DNA from: a virus
Taxonomy: Duplodnaviria > Caudoviricetes
Virus record (IMG/VR): IMGVR_UViG_3300025121_000014
Coordinates: 1-64,000 of that record
Length of the DNA stretch: 64,000 nucleotides
Direction: 5' to 3' (one strand)
Shown: piece after piece, positions 4,514 to 21,556 of the stretch
Layout of the letters: each line of letters begins with the position of its first letter
How positions within the stretch are numbered: position 1 is the first letter of the stretch
Notes under the pieces: model-generated
What the model was told of the DNA's origin: nothing
Databases searched by the model: none
The model's input: the letters and a program-made list of their open reading frames with translations, nothing else
Made by a program: the position numbers and the translations under genes

Positions 4514-5014
4514 TTATCCTTTTTCTTCGGATTTTTCTTTATTTTTATATTTTAAATATATTTCTTTTAATTTTTGTTTTTTGCTTGATGGTCCACTAAC
4601 ATTTGTAATGGTATTTTTTATATAATTTATGTCAGCTCCTAAAATTAATAGATATTCAAATGCATCTGGATTTACTTCTTCAATTGCTTTTTCTAATGAA
4701 AAATTTAAATATTTTTGTCTTATAATTTCATCTTTCATTGGTAAGATATATATATCAATGAACATTTTTACATATTTCATATCGTGATGTAAAATTTCAA
4801 AAAATAGTTCATTTAAATTTCCTTTTTCCTTTATCATATTATAAAATTCTTCATCAGTTGGTAAAAAATGTTCAGGAACATCAAATTTTCTAATTGCACG
4901 AAATATATCTGCTGTTGATTTATTTAAAAATATTTTTTTAATTTCTTCATCAGATTTAGGTTTAAGATGACCTATTACATTACTTTCGTTTATGAATTGT
5001 TTAAAAGTTTTCAT
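4514..5014 (-). CDS. Capsid-targeting-sequence (CTS) module protein with ankyrin-like C-terminus
   Basis: MKTFKQFINE start, LKPKSDEEI module, LEKAI...FEYLLILGADIN ankyrin-like end. Confidence 0.55.
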   Translation of the reverse strand: MKTFKQFINESNVIGHLKPKSDEEIKKIFLNKSTADIFRAIRKFDVPEHFLPTDEEFYNMIKEKGNLNELFFEILHHDMKYVKMFIDIYILPMKDEIIRQKYLNFSLEKAIEEVNPDAFEYLLILGADINYIKNTITNVSGPSSKKQKLKEIYLKYKNKEKSEEKG

Positions 5015-5016
5015 AT

Positions 5017-5934
5017 ATGGTATATATTAAATTTATATATAGTATATTAAAAAATATATTTTTAAGTATGAAAAAAACAATTCACTTTTTTGATTTAGAT
5101 GGAACATTATGGAGAATAAAAACTAATGCTTGGATTATTGAAAAAGCAAGACCTGGAAAACCACTTTTTAAATTATCACATATAGAGTTAAATAATATAT
5201 TATCAGGTGCATATAAAAAAGATGATATTATATTAGAATTTAATGGTAATCAATATTGGATAAGTGAAAAAATGTTTAATAGAATTAAAAGAAAAAGAAA
5301 AGATATTGAAGAAAAAGATTTAGGAATTTCTTTTATTGAAAAAACTGATCCAGATTATTATAATGATATAATTATTTATAAAGAGAATGTTAGACATTTA
5401 ATAAATAATAACGATTATGATTTTGGTATTTTAAGTGCAAGATATAATGAAGATAACGATGCTAAGATATTAAAAAAATTAAGAGAAGAATTAGAGAATA
5501 TAGGAATACATATTGATAAATCATATTATGTATCTGAAACTTATAATCAATTAAATAATGATAGTATAGGATATAAAAAATCTGATGTATTATTAGAACA
5601 TTTAATCGGGTTTAAAATTTCAAAAGATAAGTTTATTCCTATTAAACAAGATAAATACGATACTGTATATTTTTATGATGATGAATATCAAAATATCAAT
5701 ATTGCAAATACAATTCAAGATATATTAGAAAATTATTTAAGAAATACTGATGATGAAGTTTATGATCGTATTATTAAACGAATAAAAAACAATAATTTAG
5801 TATTATTTAATAATTTAGTAAGTAGTAATAATATTAAAAAATATGAAACTACAAAAATAGAATTAATAGAACCTATAAAGTATCCTATAAGAATTGATGA
5901 AAAGAAAATATATAGATTTAAAGATTACAAATAA
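5017..5934 (+). CDS. HAD-superfamily phosphatase-like protein (likely start 5068)
   Basis: FFDLDGTLW motif I, ILSAR motif II, FYDD motif IV. Confidence 0.6.
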   Translation: MVYIKFIYSILKNIFLSMKKTIHFFDLDGTLWRIKTNAWIIEKARPGKPLFKLSHIELNNILSGAYKKDDIILEFNGNQYWISEKMFNRIKRKRKDIEEKDLGISFIEKTDPDYYNDIIIYKENVRHLINNNDYDFGILSARYNEDNDAKILKKLREELENIGIHIDKSYYVSETYNQLNNDSIGYKKSDVLLEHLIGFKISKDKFIPIKQDKYDTVYFYDDEYQNINIANTIQDILENYLRNTDDEVYDRIIKRIKNNNLVLFNNLVSSNNIKKYETTKIELIEPIKYPIRIDEKKIYRFKDYK

Positions 5935-8953: not shown

Positions 8954-9742
8954 ATGAAAGATTTTATATTAAACACAGAAAAAACAGAGTTATTCAATAC
9001 AGATTTATTCAGTACAGATTTATTTAATATTCTCAAATCTAATGGTAGAAGTAAACACCCAGAGGATACAAATTTATTATATCTTTATTATCAAGCATAT
9101 AATAAACAACCTCAATTATTTCAACCGTACTCAAAAAATAACAATTATTACGATTGGAATATAGTAGTAAACGGATTAAAAAAATATTATAAAAATCCAA
9201 AAATAATTTATGCTAATACATATTATGATATCGAAAAACAAATAAAATATAGTAAAAATGAAATTTGGGAATTAGATAATGAATTAATGGTTAGTATAGA
9301 AGGTGGACTAACAGATGATTTTTATTTAGTAAATCATAATGTTGAAGATATTAAAAGAATATGTTCAAATAGTATATTTTTTCATAATGGTAATTTTAAT
9401 GATGAAGAAGTTATAAGTAAAATATTTGCCAATGCTCAAATAGTTGAGAATAAAACAGTAACTATTGGAATGGTATCTATCGATGATGGAACATTCTATG
9501 TTAAAGATTTTGATATAATGAAAAATCTTATAGAATTAAATCATTTAGATTTACATTATGGTGATGGTTTTGAAGATTTTATGGAAGAATTATTAGTAAG
9601 ATTAAAAAGAGAAAATAAAGGATTAACTTTATTTCATGGTGAACCAGGAACAGGCAAATGTGTAAAAGGTAATACTCAAATTAAAATAAGAAACAAAAAA
9701 ACAGGACTAATAGAATATATAGATATCGAAAAACTTTTATAG
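8954..9742 (+). CDS. AAA+ ATPase N-extein fused to a 27-aa split-intein N-fragment
   Basis: Walker A GEPGTGK directly followed by CVKGNTQIKI... (intein block A, Cys at 9659), then TAG. Confidence 0.85.
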   Translation: MKDFILNTEKTELFNTDLFSTDLFNILKSNGRSKHPEDTNLLYLYYQAYNKQPQLFQPYSKNNNYYDWNIVVNGLKKYYKNPKIIYANTYYDIEKQIKYSKNEIWELDNELMVSIEGGLTDDFYLVNHNVEDIKRICSNSIFFHNGNFNDEEVISKIFANAQIVENKTVTIGMVSIDDGTFYVKDFDIMKNLIELNHLDLHYGDGFEDFMEELLVRLKRENKGLTLFHGEPGTGKCVKGNTQIKIRNKKTGLIEYIDIEKLL

Positions 9743-9871
9743 TTTTTCCCTTTCCTGGTTATTATTTTTATATTAGGATATGATATATTAATAATATGGC
9801 AACAAGATGTATTAAATGACAAACAAAAAATGATAAACAAATGTATTAATTTTATTAAAAAATAAAAAAAA

Positions 9872-14131: not shown

Positions 14132-14596
14132 TTATTTTTTATAGATTTTTAAAATCTTTTTTTTTCTAAAAGTAGTATTTATTTTATCATATAAATTTAA
14201 ATTATATTTCTTTAAATTATTTTTTAATATATCTATTTCAAATAAAAAATCAACAATATCATAATGTTTATTTGTATAAGCAAATTCAATAGATTCATAA
14301 TTATTATCTAAATCTAATCTTTTATCGGATAAAAGTATTTTAAGAATTTTAATATAACCATTACCTGCTGCTTGACTAAAAGCATAATTATTATAATCAG
14401 ATGGATTGACTTCTGGAAAATTTAAAATAAATTTTACTAAATCTAAATTACCATGTTCACAAGCTAAACCAATAGGATAATTTTGTTTTATATTTACTAA
14501 AGAATTATTTTTGTTAATTAAATCTTTTATTTCGTTAACTTGATTTTTATCAAATAAACTAATAAAATCTATAATATGGTTTTCTTCAAATAGCAT
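14132..14596 (-). CDS. Ankyrin-repeat protein with C-terminal RxxK tag
   Basis: LACEHGNLDLVKFIL, QAAGNGYIKILKILL; ends FRKKKILKI. Confidence 0.8.
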   Translation of the reverse strand: MLFEENHIIDFISLFDKNQVNEIKDLINKNNSLVNIKQNYPIGLACEHGNLDLVKFILNFPEVNPSDYNNYAFSQAAGNGYIKILKILLSDKRLDLDNNYESIEFAYTNKHYDIVDFLFEIDILKNNLKKYNLNLYDKINTTFRKKKILKIYKK

Positions 14597-14613: not shown

Positions 14614-15711
14614 TTATTTAAAATCTCGCTTATCAACAGACCATCTAAAATCTTCATATTTGAAATGTTTTTCATATGCTGCCATAATACCTTCAAATGT
14701 TATATCGTTTAATATAGGTTCTATATTCCACTTTTCTGGTGATATTAAATGACCTATTTTACTATATCTATTTATTTCATTTTTTCTAAATAACACAGTA
14801 TAAAAATCTTTCATTATATTAAATCTTTCTTCTGTTAAGTATACACTAGGATTTGTTAATATTTCTTTATAAACATTTAATACTTCATCAACATTTTCAT
14901 TATCTGTTACTAAACTTGTTGATAATAATCCTTGATTTGCGGATATAGAATTTATAAAAGTAGATACACCATAAGTCAATCCTCTTTTTTCTCGCAATTC
15001 ATTATAAAACGGTGATTTTAATGACCCACTTAATATAGCAATAATAAATTTTATATAACAAAAATCTTCTACAATTAATTTATATCCTATAATAGATGAT
15101 TTATCAAAATCTGCTCTTTTTTCTATTATTATTTTTGTATCTGAAGTTTTATAATTATTATTATTAAGTTTAGCAAAATCTGTATATCCACTGAATTCAG
15201 AATACTTAGATACATTAATTATTATACTTGGTTTTTTCATATAAATATTATAAAATTTTAACATATTAGTATATGTTAAATTATTTAATGATTCATATTT
15301 ACCAATTGGTCCATAATGACCCAAATAATATCTCATTACATTTGAATAATGTGCATCACCTTGATCTTGAAAATGATCAATATATTCTTGTAAAATTATA
15401 TTTTTCTCAGTATTAAATTGTTCTTCAGTTATATTAAATTGTAATAATGAATTTAATAACTTATCTTTATACATATTAATGTATTCATCTAATCCTGTCA
15501 TATGAAATACAACGTTATTATTTGACGTAAATGCATTCCAATTTATTCCAAATCTATCGAAGTCATCATAAAGATCTTCAAATTGTTTGCAAAGCAAATG
15601 TTCAATTATATGCGACACCCCAAACGACTTAGGTGTTTCATTAAGAACCGCACCATTAAATACTATGTAAAAACCTGAGAAATCATTTTGTGATTTTAAA
15701 TTATATATCAT
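14614..15711 (-). CDS. M16-family zinc peptidase (single half)
   Basis: GVSHIIEH inverted HxxEH, NAFTS, EKNIILQE, ELREKRGLTY. Confidence 0.88.
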   Translation of the reverse strand: MIYNLKSQNDFSGFYIVFNGAVLNETPKSFGVSHIIEHLLCKQFEDLYDDFDRFGINWNAFTSNNNVVFHMTGLDEYINMYKDKLLNSLLQFNITEEQFNTEKNIILQEYIDHFQDQGDAHYSNVMRYYLGHYGPIGKYESLNNLTYTNMLKFYNIYMKKPSIIINVSKYSEFSGYTDFAKLNNNNYKTSDTKIIIEKRADFDKSSIIGYKLIVEDFCYIKFIIAILSGSLKSPFYNELREKRGLTYGVSTFINSISANQGLLSTSLVTDNENVDEVLNVYKEILTNPSVYLTEERFNIMKDFYTVLFRKNEINRYSKIGHLISPEKWNIEPILNDITFEGIMAAYEKHFKYEDFRWSVDKRDFK

Positions 15712-15889
15712 ATTTTTTATCTTTTTTTGTTTAATTATATATTAAATAGATTATTTAATTTATTTATTTTTTTAGTCTATTTAATAATAAAAGTCTTTGT
15801 TTATTTCTTTCAATCATTTCATTCATTATTACTATTACTTCTGCATAATTAGTAGCATTAAATGTTTTCATCATATTTTCCATCATTTT

Positions 15890-16315
15890 TTAATCATTAT
15901 TATTTTGGTTCATCTTTTTTAAAATATTAGATATCTTTTTTGATCTTAATTCTAATTTTTCCATAAAGTTAAATTTCCAATCAAAATCTGTAATATTTAA
16001 ATTTATTTTATCATTATTGGTATAATTAAAATTTTTATAATTTAAAACTGGTTTAAAATCTATGAATTGTATAATTTTATTTAATTTAGATGAATCTAAA
16101 GTAGATTCAAAATTCGCAGTAAGTTCATAATTTTTTTCATTATATTTTATATCAGTAATAGTTATGAAAAAATTATTTTTTGGAAAATCTGAAATATAAT
16201 TATATCGTGTTCCAACTAATATACGTTCTATTTTAATTTCTATATTATATTCATTTTTTAATTCATCGATATTAATATTATAATATTCATTAAATTTTTG
16301 GATTAATGCTTTCAA
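15890..16315 (-). CDS. RxxK-tagged protein; degenerate prohead-protease-like fold
   Basis: ITITDIKYNEKNYELTANFEST...FKP aligns by eye with 17462-17917; ends LRSKKISNI. Confidence 0.4.
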   Translation of the reverse strand: MKALIQKFNEYYNINIDELKNEYNIEIKIERILVGTRYNYISDFPKNNFFITITDIKYNEKNYELTANFESTLDSSKLNKIIQFIDFKPVLNYKNFNYTNNDKINLNITDFDWKFNFMEKLELRSKKISNILKKMNQNNND

Positions 16316-16856
16316 TGCTATTCATTATTTTTTCTACTTTTAAATATCTTAATTTTAACAAAGGTAAATATTTACAACTGAAATTAAATTTAAATCCACT
16401 AAAATCTTCTATTTGTATACAATTATAATAAAACTTGTCTATATTAATTCCACCATATTTTTCAATAATATTATTAATAGATATGGACATTTGTTCTATA
16501 ATAGTATGTTCTATATGTTGTTGTAACGAAAAATATGCTATATTCATTTCTTGCAAATGTTCGTGTGATAAACTGATAGATGTTGTAATTTTTTGGCAAT
16601 TTATAGTATCATTTTTTATAAAATCTATAAAATTTACATTATCTAAATTATTCAATTTATTTAATGTTATTAAATTCATTGATAACATATTAAAATCATA
16701 TATAGTGTTATTTTGATTACTATGTTCATTAAGAAAATAATCTGACATTCTTTCACAATATTTTGCAATTTTTATATAATTTTTAGGATTTATATTAGTT
16801 AAATTACCAAATATAGGTATCCATTTTTGCAATAATCTACTATCACTACTATTCAT
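16290..16856 (-). CDS. RxxK-tagged protein; weak major-capsid-like segments
   Basis: LLQKWIPI...KYCE...LNE resembles a capsid propeptide; SLSHEHLQEM...EQMS..IN resembles a gp23 core segment; ends LRYLKVEKI. Confidence 0.35.
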   Translation of the reverse strand: MNSSDSRLLQKWIPIFGNLTNINPKNYIKIAKYCERMSDYFLNEHSNQNNTIYDFNMLSMNLITLNKLNNLDNVNFIDFIKNDTINCQKITTSISLSHEHLQEMNIAYFSLQQHIEHTIIEQMSISINNIIEKYGGINIDKFYYNCIQIEDFSGFKFNFSCKYLPLLKLRYLKVEKIMNSIESINPKI

Positions 16857-17094
16857 AATTTTTAATTATTTTATTTAATTTTAATTTTCTAAGTTTAACA
16901 TTTTCTTCTTTAATAATTTTTAAAGTGTATTTTTCCCAAAAAATTTCATTTTCATTTATAAAATTGGGTGTTACTTGTTTAATTATTTGTTTATCATTAG
17001 CAAATTTAAATATTATCATTACTTTTTCTCCACCGTCATATACACTACTAATAGATAATATTCCATGTTGTTCTAAAAAAATTTCACTTATCAT
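16849..17094 (-). CDS. RxxK-tagged hypothetical protein
   Basis: Ends LRKLKLNKI. Confidence 0.55.
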   Translation of the reverse strand: MISEIFLEQHGILSISSVYDGGEKVMIIFKFANDKQIIKQVTPNFINENEIFWEKYTLKIIKEENVKLRKLKLNKIIKNYE

Positions 17095-17095
17095 T

Positions 17096-17461
17096 TCACT
17101 TATTAATTATTTTATTTAATTTTAACAATCTTAAATATACAACATATTTATCCATATCTATATCTATATTACCAATTGGCAAATTAATAACTTTACGAAC
17201 GAATATATTAAATCTATTTGTTATAGTTATAGTTATCATGATAATACCTTGATCTATTATATCAGGTGGGTTATTAGTTTCATCACATTTAACCCAAAAA
17301 TCTTTTGAATAAATATTTTTATTTAAAATTCTTTTTGTTAAATCGTATTTTAATTTATTTCTAGTATCTTGTGTATTAAATTTATAATCATAATAATGAA
17401 ATAGTTCAAAATATGATGTATAAATAGCGGCATCAATTAATTTATCCGAATCGATTATCAT
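17096..17461 (-). CDS. RxxK-tagged miniature tail-sheath C-terminal domain
   Basis: FNTQDTR...DFWVKCDETNNPPDIID matches the gp18 C-terminal F.N...TR...V.CD.TNNTP.VID pattern; ends LRLLKLNKI. Confidence 0.7.
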   Translation of the reverse strand: MIIDSDKLIDAAIYTSYFELFHYYDYKFNTQDTRNKLKYDLTKRILNKNIYSKDFWVKCDETNNPPDIIDQGIIMITITITNRFNIFVRKVINLPIGNIDIDMDKYVVYLRLLKLNKIINK

Positions 17462-17917
17462 TTAATTTTTTATATTGTTTAATATATTTAATATTTTTTT
17501 TGATCTTAATTTTAATATATTAGTGTATTCTTTAAATGAATCTTCTTCAACTGGAATTGCATCAAACGTAATTAAATTTGTTAATATAGTATAACCATTT
17601 TCATCAACATTTCCAATTCCGCGTGGACGAAATACTATTGTATTTGTATTAAGTAAATCATTTAATATATTACCATTTGGTGTATTTAATATTTCTACTT
17701 CACCCATTAAATAATTATTTTTTAATTCTATATTTGTTATTAAATGGGATACCCTAGATAAAGATATATCCATTTCACCCATACCTAATTCACCATATAA
17801 TCTTCCATTATCTATTTTTTCTTTTAATTTATTAAAATCAATTGATTCTTTTGTATAAATCCTATTATTTAAATTTTTAAATCCAAATGGTATTAAATTA
17901 ACTTTTATCTTTTTCAT
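17462..17917 (-). CDS. RxxK-tagged prohead protease (gp21-like) paralog, predicted inactive
   Basis: NNRIY, LYGELG, VSHLIT, GEVEILNTPNG, RG.G and FDA present; GELxHP His and SSRG Ser replaced (GELGMG, FRPRG). Confidence 0.8.
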   Translation of the reverse strand: MKKIKVNLIPFGFKNLNNRIYTKESIDFNKLKEKIDNGRLYGELGMGEMDISLSRVSHLITNIELKNNYLMGEVEILNTPNGNILNDLLNTNTIVFRPRGIGNVDENGYTILTNLITFDAIPVEEDSFKEYTNILKLRSKKILNILNNIKN

Positions 17918-18266
17918 ATTTTATAATTTCCTTTTTTATTTTATCACATTCAATATAATCTTCTATTTCTAATGCTTTTACAAAATTTACATATAAAAGA
18001 AACAATTCTTTATTACCTAAAACTTCTATCAAATCTATTTGTATTTGCATAATATTAATAAGATTATCATGATTATTTATAAATAAATCAATTATTTCTG
18101 TTTGTAAATTAATTAAATATTCTAATTTATCTATATCTTTATTTAAAATATCAGACGATTTTGTAATATTTTTACTCTGTAATTCTTTTAATGTATTAGA
18201 ACTATCATCAAATTCACTCATTAATTCAAGAAATTCTTTTATTATGTTAATATTTTCTTCATCCAT
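17898..18266 (-). CDS. Coiled-coil protein with UVR-like C-terminus
   Basis: ALEIEDYIECDKIKKEI. Confidence 0.45.
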   Translation of the reverse strand: MDEENINIIKEFLELMSEFDDSSNTLKELQSKNITKSSDILNKDIDKLEYLINLQTEIIDLFINNHDNLINIMQIQIDLIEVLGNKELFLLYVNFVKALEIEDYIECDKIKKEIIKYEKDKS

Positions 18267-18291
18267 TTCTTATTTAATTATTTTTAATATT

Positions 18292-18307
18292 TGTTCCACG
18301 TGGAACA
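18292..18307. promoter_or_regulatory. parS-type palindrome
   Basis: Perfect intergenic TGTTCCACGTGGAACA; identical core at 55600-55615. Confidence 0.85.
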
Positions 18308-18313
18308 TTATAT

Positions 18314-18556
18314 TTATATTTTTGTAATTAATCTATTTAGTTTATATCTTCGTAATTGTTTAGTATCTAAAAAATATTTTTTCCATCCACCCCTTACAGC
18401 ATGAATTTTTTTATTTTCATCTATTAAACAATAACCATCTAAATCAACATCAACTATTCTATAATATTTTCCTTTTATAAAATCTATTTTTTCAGAATCA
18501 GAATCATAAGGTTCTTTCATATATAATGTATATTTACAATATAAATATTTTAACAT
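18314..18556 (-). CDS. RxxK-tagged small protein (paralog of 18550-18786)
   Basis: FIKGKYY...WKKYFLDTKQLRRYKLNRL. Confidence 0.6.
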   Translation of the reverse strand: MLKYLYCKYTLYMKEPYDSDSEKIDFIKGKYYRIVDVDLDGYCLIDENKKIHAVRGGWKKYFLDTKQLRRYKLNRLITKI

Positions 18557-18786
18557 TTCATTAATTTTTTAATTTTTAATCTTCTTAATTGTATAGTATC
18601 TAAAAAATATTGCTTCCAAGAATATGGTCCATTAGATAATTTTTCTTTATTATTTAATTCATTTGTGACTATAACACTATTTTTTGAATTATTCATATTA
18701 TAATCTTGTTTATAATATTTACCTTTTATGAAACGTATTTCATTTTTAAATCCTAAATTTTTAGTACAATACAAATAATTATTCAT
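18550..18786 (-). CDS. RxxK-tagged small protein
   Basis: FIKGKYY...WKQYFLDTIQLRRLKIKKL. Confidence 0.6.
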   Translation of the reverse strand: MNNYLYCTKNLGFKNEIRFIKGKYYKQDYNMNNSKNSVIVTNELNNKEKLSNGPYSWKQYFLDTIQLRRLKIKKLMKC

Positions 18787-19420
18787 TTTTAATTAATTTT
18801 AATATTTTATCTCGTCTATCGTGTCTTTCCCATATTATTCTTTTATCTAATATATCAACACTAATTATATTTTCATGGTCATCTATATCTTTTAAAATTA
18901 TATTTTTTAAATATGGAAATTTAACACTTTTCCACCAATTATTTAGTTGTTCTTTTTTACAATCTGGTTTAACATAAATTTTACCTGAATCATTATATCC
19001 ACTAATTATACTTGGCATTCCTTTAAAATATATCTTTTTATACTTTAATTTAGAAAAATTTGTTAATTTTAATTTATCCATTAATTCGTCTAATTCATAT
19101 ATAATACTTCGTGCTTTATTAAAAGCATAATCTAAATCTTTTGCATAACATTCATAAATGATAGTTTTATTTAAATTAATTGTAATATTACTAAATCCTT
19201 TTACAAATGAATTTTTAATAATATTACCTTGTTTAATATCTATATCCCAGCATCTTTTATTAATATTTTTTTCGGTATAAGGAACATATTTTTCTTCTTT
19301 ACTAAAAAGATTATTATCCATTTTTATCCATAATGTACCATTATCATGTTCTTTATCTGGAATATCTACAACAGTATATATTGCACCTCTAATCAAGATA
19401 TCATTTACAATATTTTTCAT
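18779..19420 (-). CDS. RxxK-tagged hypothetical protein
   Basis: Ends DRRDKILKL. Confidence 0.6.
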   Translation of the reverse strand: MKNIVNDILIRGAIYTVVDIPDKEHDNGTLWIKMDNNLFSKEEKYVPYTEKNINKRCWDIDIKQGNIIKNSFVKGFSNITINLNKTIIYECYAKDLDYAFNKARSIIYELDELMDKLKLTNFSKLKYKKIYFKGMPSIISGYNDSGKIYVKPDCKKEQLNNWWKSVKFPYLKNIILKDIDDHENIISVDILDKRIIWERHDRRDKILKLIKNE

Positions 19421-19523
19421 TTATTATATTATTCATTATTTTTTTAATCTTTTCCCTTCTGATATAATCATTATAACGAATAGATTTTCCTGTTTTCTTA
19501 CTAGTTATCCAATTTTCGTCCAT
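19401..19523 (-). CDS. 40-aa RxxK-tagged micro-protein (not in ORF track)
   Basis: MDENWITSKKTGKSIRYNDYIRREKIKKIMNNIINEKYCK; overlaps both neighbours in operon fashion. Confidence 0.5.
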   Translation of the reverse strand: MDENWITSKKTGKSIRYNDYIRREKIKKIMNNIINEKYCK

Positions 19524-19740
19524 TTATATAATTCATTATTTTTTTTATCTTTCTTTTTCTTAAATTGTGTATTTCATATTCACTATAACTTATATTATGT
19601 GATATACGTTCAGCAATATATTCTGAATAACTTATACCATGTGATATACGTTCAGCAAGATGTTCTGAATAACTTATATTTATATTATGTGATATATGTT
19701 CAGCAAGATATTCTGAACAACTTGTATTTATATTAATCAT
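19501..19740 (-). CDS. RxxK-tagged protein made of SYSEY[LI]AE repeats (scaffold-like)
   Basis: Four ISYSE(Y/H)(L/I)AE(R/H)ISH-type units, also visible as DNA repeats; ends LRKRKIKKI. Confidence 0.55.
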   Translation of the reverse strand: MININTSCSEYLAEHISHNINISYSEHLAERISHGISYSEYIAERISHNISYSEYEIHNLRKRKIKKIMNYINGRKLDN

Positions 19741-19937
19741 AATGTATTTATTATTTTTTCTAATTTTTGTTTTCTTTTTTTTAATATATCTTTATCAATT
19801 AACCATTCAGTATATCTTATTATATCTTCTTTTGTTACCCCACCAGGTAAATCAACTAATTTAACCATAGTTATAGCTAAATCATAATATCCGTCTTCTA
19901 TTATTGTTTCTATTGATTTACTCATAATCCATTTCAA
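19737..19937 (-). CDS. RxxK-tagged small protein
   Basis: Ends KRKQKLEKI. Confidence 0.55.
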   Translation of the reverse strand: MKWIMSKSIETIIEDGYYDLAITMVKLVDLPGGVTKEDIIRYTEWLIDKDILKKRKQKLEKIINTL

Positions 19938-20316
19938 CTATATTTTGTAATATCCGATTTAATTTTATTCTTCTTAAAAGTAAAAACTCATTTTCTTGTC
20001 CAATATATGCATATCTAATTATATATTCACCTGTATGCATATCCTTTTTAAAAAAGCATTTTTCTTCTAAAGGTATGTATATAACAACCTTATATTGTAA
20101 TTGTTTAATAACATTTATGAAATGATTTAAATTTTTAAATTTAGTATACTTAACACTTACATTTTGATTTATTACTCTAGGTTCACCGTTTATTTTTTTA
20201 ACATAATAATTTACAAATACTGGAATGAAAACATATTTTATTTTTGATATATCTACATCTAATCCTTCAAATAACATATTATTTATTTTTTCTAATTCTT
20301 TGGTTATTGTTGACAC
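19918..20316 (-). CDS. RxxK-tagged protein (weak capsid C-terminus-like YIPL...IRYA)
   Basis: Ends LRRIKLNRI. Confidence 0.5.
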   Translation of the reverse strand: MSTITKELEKINNMLFEGLDVDISKIKYVFIPVFVNYYVKKINGEPRVINQNVSVKYTKFKNLNHFINVIKQLQYKVVIYIPLEEKCFFKKDMHTGEYIIRYAYIGQENEFLLLRRIKLNRILQNIVEMDYE

Positions 20317-20696
20317 TTCATTAATCTTTCAATTTTATATTTTCTAATATATTCCATAGTATGTATTTGTATTATGGAATAATCTACATTGAATTCTATT
20401 AGAATAATATTATCATCATCATAGATATAATCTTTAATGAATATACCATGTAAAATAAGTGATTTAGTATCATCAAAAATTTTTATTTTACTACATTTAT
20501 GTCTATGTTCATCCTGCATATATTTTATTAAATTAAATAAATTATAATCATCTTTTCTATTTGGTAGTAATTTACATTCTAAAATATAATCCAATTCAAC
20601 AATATCGTGATTGATATCTTCTGAATATTTAAATTTTGAATTAAAAAAATCAAATATTTTATCTTCTATTTTTATTAAAAATCCATTAAATATCAT
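20304..20696 (-). CDS. RxxK-tagged protein (weak tube-like beta pattern)
   Basis: IKIFD...LHG.F...IEFNVDY; ends IRKYKIERL. Confidence 0.5.
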   Translation of the reverse strand: MIFNGFLIKIEDKIFDFFNSKFKYSEDINHDIVELDYILECKLLPNRKDDYNLFNLIKYMQDEHRHKCSKIKIFDDTKSLILHGIFIKDYIYDDDNIILIEFNVDYSIIQIHTMEYIRKYKIERLMKCQQ

Positions 20697-20895
20697 TTAT
20701 TAATCTCTTTAATTTTTTATATCTAGCCCACATATTTACTAATACCATATTTACCATCATATAATTTTTACTTGTATATGGTTTATATGTTATATAAACC
20801 AAATTTTCAGTAAATGGTGGTTTAGTCATATATGTATAATCAGTTATTCCTTTTTCTGTTTCTAGATAAATATCTAATAATTGTTTATTGAACAT
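20686..20895 (-). CDS. RxxK-tagged small protein
   Basis: Ends ARYKKLKRL. Confidence 0.55.
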   Translation of the reverse strand: MFNKQLLDIYLETEKGITDYTYMTKPPFTENLVYITYKPYTSKNYMMVNMVLVNMWARYKKLKRLINDI

Positions 20896-21118
20896 TTAAT
20901 TTCTTTATTTTTTTACTTCTTAACCATTTAATATAACCAGATTTATCTAATCCAAAACCTTTTGTATCTCTATTATTTAATTTTACATAATCATCTAATA
21001 TTCTAATTATTATCGATTTATCTATTACTTTTATTGTTTCGATCATTTTATCGGTATATTGTGTGTTACTACACCAATAATTTAAATATTCAATTATAAG
21101 TTTATTATCGTATTCCAT
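20885..21118 (-). CDS. RxxK-tagged small protein
   Basis: Ends LRSKKIKKL. Confidence 0.55.
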   Translation of the reverse strand: MEYDNKLIIEYLNYWCSNTQYTDKMIETIKVIDKSIIIRILDDYVKLNNRDTKGFGLDKSGYIKWLRSKKIKKLNVQ

Positions 21119-21336
21119 TTAATATTTTGTTTAATTTTTTACTTCTTAACCATAAATCAAAATCTTCTTTTTTTACAAATTTATCGGCAATTTTATTTTT
21201 TTTTATAATAATTGTTAGAAAAATTAACATATATGAAATTCCATTTATCTAATTTTATTAAATTCGGTCTTATTTTAGAAATATCATTTATTTGCACATT
21301 TAAATATTTTGATATAATATTTTTATTTAATTCCAT
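21105..21336 (-). pseudogene. RxxK-tagged gene frameshifted at an A9 tract (21196-21204)
   Basis: MELNKNIISKYLN...NNYYKKK* in one frame; ...KIADKFVKKEDFDLWLRSKKLNKILNGIR* in the adjacent frame. Span is 77 codons + 1 nt; paralog of 21323-21556. Confidence 0.65.
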
Positions 21337-21556
21337 TTAATATTTTTTCTAATTTTTTACTTCTTTCCCAAATATGATAATCATTATATCTTATTATTTC
21401 ATTAAATGTTTTAATTTTTATACCATATTCATTAGTAAAATAAACTAAAAAATAAATCAATTTAAATTTAAATATTAATATTCTATCAATATCATCAACA
21501 TTAATATTTAAATATTCAGCTACACTTTCTTTACTTGGTTCTATCAGTTTTATCAT
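21323..21556 (-). CDS. RxxK-tagged small protein
   Basis: Ends ERSKKLEKILNGIK. Confidence 0.6.
   Translation of the reverse strand: MIKLIEPSKESVAEYLNINVDDIDRILIFKFKLIYFLVYFTNEYGIKIKTFNEIIRYNDYHIWERSKKLEKILNGIK

Follow-up and report, generated by a model that had tools for sequence, protein, structure and literature searches.

Why does a phage carry, in a row of small genes with one common C-terminal peptide, proteins that resemble reduced pieces of phage heads and tails? This question is raised by an array on the minus strand of the virus record IMGVR_UViG_3300025121_000014 (Duplodnaviria; Caudoviricetes), of which positions 1 to 64,000, hereafter the window, were analyzed. Between 14132 and 21556 of the window lie about 20 co-oriented small genes whose products share the C-terminal helix L-R-x-x-K-I-x-K-[IL]-[ILM], hereafter the tag; single genes are named below by their lower coordinate. 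The window has a G+C content of ~21%, its nearest public genomes are LR756501-4, uncultured phages of 630–735 kb, and within this T4-like huge phage the array forms a region of accessory cassettes. A first-pass annotation had flagged seven of the small proteins as degenerate mimics of virion proteins. Four of these seven bodies, 17462, 17096, 19501 and 16290, are very probably fragments or dead copies of virion proteins.

Four virion-related bodies in the tagged array

The product of 17462 had been described as a gp21-like protease that lacks the catalytic His and Ser, and this description held. It matched PHROG 207 (head maturation protease) with an E-value of 1e-15, its homologues bear PF03420, and the profile of its family matched T4 gp21 (PDB 5JBL) at 7e-25. 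With T4 gp21 (Peptidase_S77) it shares the N-x-N-x-R-x-Y, GEL, VSH and ILNT motifs and the aspartate of FDA, but it lacks the N-terminal propeptide and most of the C-terminal extension. The catalytic residues of T4 gp21 are His85 and Ser140 (bioRxiv 10.64898/2026.03.04.709575), and both are replaced in 17462, where GELGHP has become GELGMG and SSRG has become FRPRG. Seven pseudo-protease relatives from different assemblies each lack at least one catalytic residue, and where SSR stood, six of the seven have FRPR and the one from the related contig L009 has FRSR. Because the FRPR/FRSR replacement is kept together with the loss of catalytic residues in all seven, they form a conserved dead-protease subfamily and not a set of randomly decayed genes. 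Judging by its residues, 17462 is a predicted pseudo-enzyme and not a protease; as shown in LR756501, such a gene is an extra copy that lies away from the head genes and exists beside the real protease.

Similar to 17462, the reading of 17096 as an isolated tail-sheath C-terminal domain was borne out. The profile of its family (26 sequences, hereafter mini-sheaths) matched T4 gp18 residues 568–644 with an E-value of 1e-15, and 7 of the 26 members match PF17482. An exhaustive profile search with 17096 recovered 24 further clusters, mostly of 80–160 aa, plus one protein of 1015 aa that matches at its C-terminus, and the family motif N..TR…CDE.NNPP..ID retains the core of the gp18 C-terminal domain. 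No other sheath domains were found in 17096, the alignment of this 121-aa protein being confined to gp18 residues ~568–644. In contrast to gp18, and to the real sheath of LR756501 with its frame of ~1285 aa, the mini-sheath is thus a stand-alone protein of ~100–120 aa, and its family, known from metagenomes, comprises at least 24 clusters found among non-structural genes.

For 19501, which had been noted for a scaffold-like SYSEYLAE repeat, the comparison with LR756501 gave a counterpart. The real prohead protease-scaffold of that phage (73913–76336, or L032:13913-16336; o73913, 807 aa) carries 13 tandem 14-aa repeats of the YSEYIAE type (…KYSEYIAENLDKSI…) after its protease domain, and the repeats of 19501, two strict and two near units, matched this scaffold extension in blastp at 5e-11. 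In detail, blastp and phmmer aligned 19501 with o73913 residues 303–509 and with a tagged 207-aa protein of LR756501; 19501 also holds a recent internal duplication of 90 nt. The repeat unit is a heptad of the kind also seen in the N-terminal capsid-targeting leaders of the window genome. The T4 capsid-targeting sequence is YQEFIAE, and because the repeat heptad is nearly identical to it, the targeting leaders may be single copies of the scaffold repeat.

For 16290, said to be capsid-like, no direct match to Pfam or PHROG was obtained, and the likeness was supported through intermediates. A profile built from 16290 and its L009 orthologue, searched against LR756501 as a one-genome database, matched two mini-capsids of ~190 aa (o276342 at 3.9e-13 and o565330 at 9.5e-7), covering the LR756501 mini-capsid over nearly its whole length, and it matched the real gp23-type capsid protein o76415 at 2.2e-4 in two collinear segments. 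Mini-capsid o276342 itself aligned with the LR756501 capsid protein (583 aa) in three collinear segments, at residues 2–96, 345–385 and 534–559 (3e-18, 9e-8 and 1e-4, respectively), and Pfam Gp23 (PF07068) matched o76415 at 1.8e-25 and o276342 weakly. By way of these intermediates, 16290 is identified as a putative mini major capsid protein in which the N-terminal propeptide region, a single central segment and the C-terminal strand are preserved; these are three short collinear segments, and the complete capsid fold is not represented.

The remaining three flagged bodies fared less well. For 20304, described as weakly tube-like, 7 of the 10 nearest structure clusters in the ESM Atlas are tube, Hcp, TssD or tube-like baseplate families (TM 0.55–0.61; model pLDDT 0.55), but no Pfam, PHROG or PDB match was found, and hhalign against the phage's own tube gave a probability of 0.5%. 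An AF2 model from the single sequence (pLDDT 34) was unusable for fold search, and a tube-like fold of 20304 is at present suggestive only, favored by the model neighbors and not by sequence likeness to the tube. The view of 15890 as a second, more decayed gp21-like fold was given up: hhalign against the gp21 profile gave a probability of 0.1%, searches with HMMs, PDB profiles and the LR756501 proteome were negative, and the AF2 model from a two-row alignment (pLDDT 40) was unusable for fold search. Pfam, PHROG and LR756501 comparisons were likewise negative for 19918, which was rejected as a weakly capsid-like protein. The statement that each ORF of the array is a mimic was therefore overstated, as the four bodies stand but most of the ~20 tagged genes, 15890 and 19918 included, are without recognizable virion ancestry, and one of them encodes an ankyrin-repeat protein. 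In the literature searched, no description was found of a conserved FRPR dead-protease family, a stand-alone sheath-domain family or mini-capsid proteins.

The array and the features that bear on it are listed here by window coordinates, strand and product.

14132–14596, minus: ankyrin-repeat protein with a tag variant (Ank Pfam families on the identical L004 gene; the L009 orthologue keeps the tag)
14614–15711, minus: M16 zinc peptidase of 365 aa with an HIIEH motif and tagged genes on either side (Pfam M16 and M16_C; 79% identical in L009)
15735–15745, minus: late-type promoter-like motif TTAATATATAA, 24 nt upstream of the M16 start
15764–15886, minus: 40-aa ORF with a truncated tag (…QRLLLLNRLKK); the L009 counterpart has 66 aa and a full tag
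15890–16315, minus: tagged 141-aa protein, no detectable gp21 likeness (L009 orthologue, ~45–50% identity)
16290–16856, minus: tagged putative mini major capsid protein (profile with the L009 orthologue against LR756501)
16849–17094, minus: tagged 81-aa protein (L009 orthologue, 42%; no Pfam/PHROG family match)
17096–17461, minus: tagged stand-alone tail-sheath C-terminal domain (mini-sheath), 121 aa (orthologues in L009, 61%; L015, 34%; LR756501, 37%)
17462–17917, minus: tagged gp21/Peptidase_S77 predicted pseudo-protease of the FRPR subfamily, 151 aa (orthologues in L009, 55%; L015, 41%; L003, 44%; LR756501, 35%)
17898–18266, minus: untagged acidic 122-aa protein overlapping the pseudo-protease start (L009 orthologue, 62%, at the same position; no family match)
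18314–18786, minus: two tagged paralogues of 80 and 78 aa (body similarity E 1.5e-4; relatives in L009)
18779–19523, minus: tagged proteins of 213 aa and 40 aa (identified by the tag)
19501–19740, minus: tagged mini-scaffold with four tandem xSYSEY(I/L)AE units (blastp and phmmer to LR756501)
19737–20316, minus: tagged proteins of 62–66 aa and 119–132 aa, including 19918, which is without detectable capsid likeness
20304–20696, minus: tagged 130-aa protein, possible tail-tube/Hcp-like fold (ESM Atlas neighbors)
20686–21556, minus: four further tagged small genes (identified by the tag), including a frameshifted paralogue at 21105–21336
1746–2306, plus: real tail tube gene of the window phage (47% identical, full length, to the LR756501 tube protein, which matches tail-tube PHROG 45; late-type motif upstream at 1675)
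1675, 3099, 15735 (minus), 21618, 23298, 41059 (minus), 46552, 51141, 53970, 59809 and 62214: examples of exact TTAATATATAA matches in the window

The pseudo-protease stop abuts the start of the mini-sheath gene, and this adjacency is conserved in three genomes. The contig L009 (11 kb, 21.6% G+C) is syntenic with the window, and its same-tag small-gene array ends at M16 peptidase and ankyrin genes; 17898, 17462, 17096, 16849, 16290 and 15890 have orthologues there at 34–62% identity, and the remaining array genes have turned over. L015 (26% G+C) has a tagged pseudo-protease followed directly by a tagged mini-sheath, with an 11-nt overlap, and over both contigs the orthologues of array genes are 34–64% identical and retain the tag. 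The M16 peptidase is 36–44% identical in LR756501-4 and LR745206, the largest known phages, and it is a possible reader or processor of the tags. Elsewhere the window encodes a fused Mre11/Rad50-like protein, TnpB proteins, and homologues of patatin and glutamine synthetase, and DNA identical to the window is present in several groundwater metagenome assemblies.

Some side observations concern the array itself. The overlapping ORFs 21193–21336 and 21105–21230 together resemble a frameshifted copy of the adjacent 77-aa genes 21323–21556 and 20885–21118. A small ORF in L009 is similar to a portal fragment. Further, in one assembly (L005:1-3790) the 213-aa gene of the array adjoins unrelated minus-strand genes, one of them for a PMT_2 glycosyltransferase, and not the upstream array genes; this junction is either a chimeric contig or a rearranged variant.

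The C-terminal tag and its exchange in LR756501

The shared RxxK tag claimed for the operon was recovered in a pattern scan of the 186 window ORFs. The pattern R..K[ILVM].[KRNE][ILM][ILMN] lies within the last 28 residues of 16 consecutive minus-strand ORFs (16290–21556); the other ~170 ORFs lack it, no internal occurrence was seen, and close variants stand on 15890 and on the ankyrin gene 14132 (FRKKKILKIY). From 39 pooled tags of the window and two relatives the consensus Φ-R-[KR]-x-K-I-x-K-[IL]-[ILM]-[KN]-N-I was obtained, which reads as a basic amphipathic helix, and AF2 likewise predicts a helix there. The bodies that carry the tag are mutually unrelated except for two small paralogue pairs. 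Since the tag codons vary synonymously (AGA/CGA, TCA/AGT, TTA/CTT/CTA) and their distance to the stop ranges from 9 to 21 codons, the tag is conserved as a peptide and not as DNA, and a DNA or RNA element was ruled out on these grounds.

A T4-type cleavage or targeting leader was also rejected as an explanation of the tag, given its C-terminal location and, by inspection, the lack of a conserved (L/I)-x-E site ahead of it. True N-terminal leaders are present on other window genes, as the leader pattern [FY]xx[FY][IL]xE gave 14 matches among the window ORFs, 11 of them at protein positions 4–7. The T4 internal proteins with an N-terminal capsid-targeting sequence, which the repeat unit YSEYIAE resembles, are similar to the array in that a short peptide is shared by unrelated bodies. 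They differ in that the array tag is C-terminal, basic and helical, no conserved Glu site was seen ahead of it, and the array genes are without the late-type motif that precedes the N-terminally tagged genes of the phage.

Two observations concern tag-like tails outside the array. In LR756502.1 (L021), the small minus-strand ORFs 4992–5243 and 16005–16157 end in RxxK-type tails (…RRINKIKKILG and …RDSKLNEILK), ~3–7 kb from an M16 homologue, so that the tag of the window may also occur in the largest phages. After the untagged pseudo-protease of L003, a basic helix-like stretch (…HLKILIKRKKQLFNIK) continues in frame past TGA and TAA stops at 9715–9790; it may be a decayed tail or chance.

All four mini families are common to the window lineage and LR756501 (735 kb), which has a real sheath and a real protease-scaffold and, in addition, an FRPR pseudo-protease and a mini-sheath. 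There, however, the pseudo-protease, the mini-sheath and the scaffold-repeat protein end in another shared peptide, …F-S-E-L-D-P-Y-G-E-E-N-W, as do their neighbors in small-gene arrays. The LR756501 mini-capsids nearest to 16290 are untagged, and two other capsid fragments there bear the DPYGEE tag. Because three families bear a different tag in LR756501, tag and body are separable modules, and the exchange of tags between lineages, with the bodies kept, gives direct evidence for portable address modules in the shared peptides that recur in huge phages.

The DPYGEE coding sequence occurs 109 times in LR756501, and was found neither in the reversed control nor in LR756502. About 92 ORFs of LR756501 contain DP[YF]GE[ED] (loci L029-L065, e.g., L056:12409-16034), ~41 of them as a C-terminal tag (…FSELDPYGEENW); some of the others have it near the N-terminus, and some long ORFs (843 and 1179 aa) hold four copies. 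Among 38 DPYGEE-tagged LR756501 proteins, the only named families found were head protease, tail sheath, Gp23 and DUF1660. In the literature searched, no description was found of the DPYGEE tag, of capsid decoys of this kind or of tagged virion-protein fragments in general.

Further, paralogues were screened in LR756501 by comparing all ORFs of ≤260 aa with all ORFs of ≥350 aa. The portal (PHROG 213 at 1.7e-66), protease-scaffold, capsid and sheath received 13 of the 29 small-versus-large links (binomial p 9e-14). The portal, protease-scaffold and capsid genes (71969–78166) have 12 scattered fragment paralogues, i.e., six of the capsid protein, from different segments, and three each of the portal and the protease-scaffold, and the minis are 38–45% identical to their parent proteins in that genome.

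Selection, distribution and promoter context

The array frames of 121–188 codons are open, for which the chance probability at ~21% G+C is 6e-6 to 7e-9, and the fragment genes are conserved across three or four lineages. The codon-frequency-aware dN/dS was 0.01–0.35, with dS saturated, while a counting method gave 0.5–1.2, near 1; the latter is not trustworthy because AT bias compresses dS. The non-synonymous divergence of the array genes was 2–5-fold that of the neighboring M16 gene. These results indicated that the fragments are under selection and not in decay, given their open frames, tagged orthologues and dN/dS of ≤0.35. The first-pass annotation had itself named recovery of a single structural fold and neutral decay as findings that would count against it; more than one structural fold was recovered, and the frames are intact with dN/dS ≤0.35. 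Silent gene-conversion cassettes were also considered and rejected, as the fragments have their own starts and tags and are only 38–45% identical to the parent proteins.

Across 2,355 records of T4-like phages, the mini-sheath query matched a single place in each, and all of the matches listed fall under a sheath gene or an unannotated one. In the close relative LR756502 the mini families were not found, and one sheath-domain and one protease match each lay within a long frame. The array is thus accessory and not core, being patchy in the T4-like records and LR756502. Mini-sheath genes found elsewhere adjoin dUTPase, SMC/Rad50-like and UvrD-like genes, and the untagged pseudo-protease of L003 adjoins PcfJ-like and tRNA-synthetase-like genes.

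The motif TTAATATATAA was found exactly and on the matching strand upstream of many gene starts, typically at ~15–130 nt, including those of the tube gene, the M16 gene, a TnpB gene and genes with T4-like targeting leaders, and from these positions it is likely a late promoter element. The coding strand of the array has no copy of it, while copies stand just upstream of the flanking genes, in agreement with the earlier remark that the array is without the late motif. A scan for sigma-70-type promoters found sites no more frequent than in shuffled sequence.

Possible roles of the fragments

What would a phage gain from such proteins? The fragments presumably cannot build a particle, yet each plausibly keeps one parent surface that contacts subunits, substrates or the scaffold core, and for this reason they may be competitive binders. 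Tentatively, we favor the reading that the minis compete without assembling and so block the host sensors that recognize virion proteins. The likeliest targets would be host immune sensors of virion proteins or of head-protease activity. The minis would be made before the late proteins proper: the dead protease would sit on, or shield, the protease-sensitive loops used in activation, and the capsid, sheath, tube and scaffold pieces would fill the pockets of a sensor but not bring about the assembly needed to switch it on. One common partner or place for all minis would be provided by the shared tag, by which decoys or dominant-negative proteins would be routed in the proposal of the first-pass annotation. 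The activity of T4 gp21 switches on CBASS (bioRxiv 10.64898/2026.03.04.709575), and STAND/Avs sensors recognize capsid, portal and tail tube proteins (bioRxiv 10.64898/2026.01.04.697583). Blocking of sensors fits the accessory distribution, the missing late motif, the faster evolution and this published list of sensed proteins, and on balance we hold this reading to be possible, though short of probable.

Several points weigh against sensor blocking. The tail sheath is listed only as a possible undiscovered sensor target (bioRxiv 10.64898/2026.01.04.697583), no sheath-sensing defense was found in the literature searched, and a fragment that binds a sensor could trigger it rather than block it. 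Because the four families predate the split of the window lineage and LR756501, a stable housekeeping role fits as well as an arms race. In addition, most of the tagged genes are without recognizable virion ancestry, a scan of nine array proteins and the M16 peptidase against the PADLOC families gave no match, and the promoter timing relies on a single motif in an AT-rich genome.

The minis could instead regulate the phage's own assembly, by capping capsid, scaffold, protease and sheath surfaces and so stopping premature or aberrant polymerization (polysheath, polyheads), with the tag allowing their timed removal, e.g., by the adjacent late-promoter M16 peptidase. Between the window and LR756501 the mini families are 35–41% identical and the M16 peptidase is 38–44% identical, so that the minis are about as diverged between the lineages as M16, and what the minis retain are parts that engage in interactions (the N-terminal region of the capsid protein, the scaffold repeat and the C-terminal domain of the sheath). 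Moreover, the M16 gene is surrounded by tagged genes in the window as well as in L009, and it has its own late-type motif. However, the families were not found in LR756502, the mini-sheath query hit one place per record in the 2,355 T4-like phage records, the array lacks the late motif and evolves faster than its neighboring genes, and the genes found elsewhere lie among replication and small early-type genes. We regard assembly control as somewhat unlikely.

Weapons are another alternative, in which the fragments are dominant-negative subunits that poison the head or tail assembly of co-infecting relatives, resident prophages, tailocins or host contractile machines, and in which divergence spares the phage itself. 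An identity of only 38–45% to the LR756501 parents and the patchy accessory distribution would suit this role. Satellites redirect helper capsids with capsid-related proteins, which is a precedent for it; those of SaPI (Ccm/CpmB) and P4 (Sid) are virion-related, satellite-encoded, act on the helper and interfere with its capsid assembly. The array fragments differ from them in being paralogues of the phage's own genes, covering head and tail, and bearing an address tag. Self-poisoning would be hard to avoid, since of all sheath motifs the most universal one is kept in the mini-sheath; nothing points to a target, and the families are old and shared rather than lineage-specific. A weapon seems unlikely to us.

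Packaged cargo was weighed as well; here the tag would direct proteins to the head core and would be related to the propeptide at the gp21 C-terminus. The fragments would then join the scaffold core during assembly and enter the next host by injection. In the pseudo-protease, the tag aligns to the final helix found in full-length relatives of gp21 (…NFLNNIK vs. …NILNNIK). Both gp21 and Alt undergo C-terminal processing, and a role in targeting to the prohead has been proposed for the gp21 propeptides (PMC9026906). The protease, the scaffold repeat and the capsid N-terminal region all are prohead-core contacts, and the LR756501 tag is also repeated inside long ORFs. Against these points, the likeness to the gp21 C-terminus is short, the phage already uses a T4-type N-terminal targeting sequence on many genes with the late motif, which the array lacks, no conserved (L/I)-x-E cleavage site was seen by inspection ahead of the tags, and tail-derived fragments do not fit, so that we consider packaging distinctly doubtful.

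A broader scheme of modular capture seems improbable to us. Each body, whether mimic, ankyrin repeat or other binder, would grip one host sensor or rival subunit, and the helix would dock all of them on a common machine, e.g., a host AAA+ protease or the adjacent M16 peptidase, for removal; the lineages would have swapped the tag (RxxKIxKLL vs. DPYGEENW) and kept the binders. In poxviruses, ankyrin/PRANC (F-box-like) proteins combine binder bodies that vary, ankyrin repeats among them, with a single conserved helix at the C-terminus, by which they dock on a shared machine; the likeness is no more than an analogy, with no sequence relation and hosts in another domain of life.

Finally, functionless debris of duplicated or captured virion genes, to which the frameshifted member at 21105–21336, the truncated tag at 15764–15886 and a counting-method dN/dS near 1 could point, is very improbable and largely refuted by the long open frames in an AT-rich genome, the conservation over three or four lineages, the almost end-to-end match of the mini-capsid profile to an LR756501 mini-capsid, FRPR at the former active site in six of seven members and a codon-frequency-aware dN/dS of ≤0.35.

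Virion proteins of this kind are now known to be watched by bacterial immunity: capsid, portal and tail tube through Avs/STAND, and head-protease activity through CBASS. The minis offer testable pairs, each mini-protein against its parent and the cognate sensor. If one of the functional readings is true, a phage that encodes non-assembling copies of virion proteins would possess a counter-measure of a new class, or else a new kind of assembly control or of weapon between phages.

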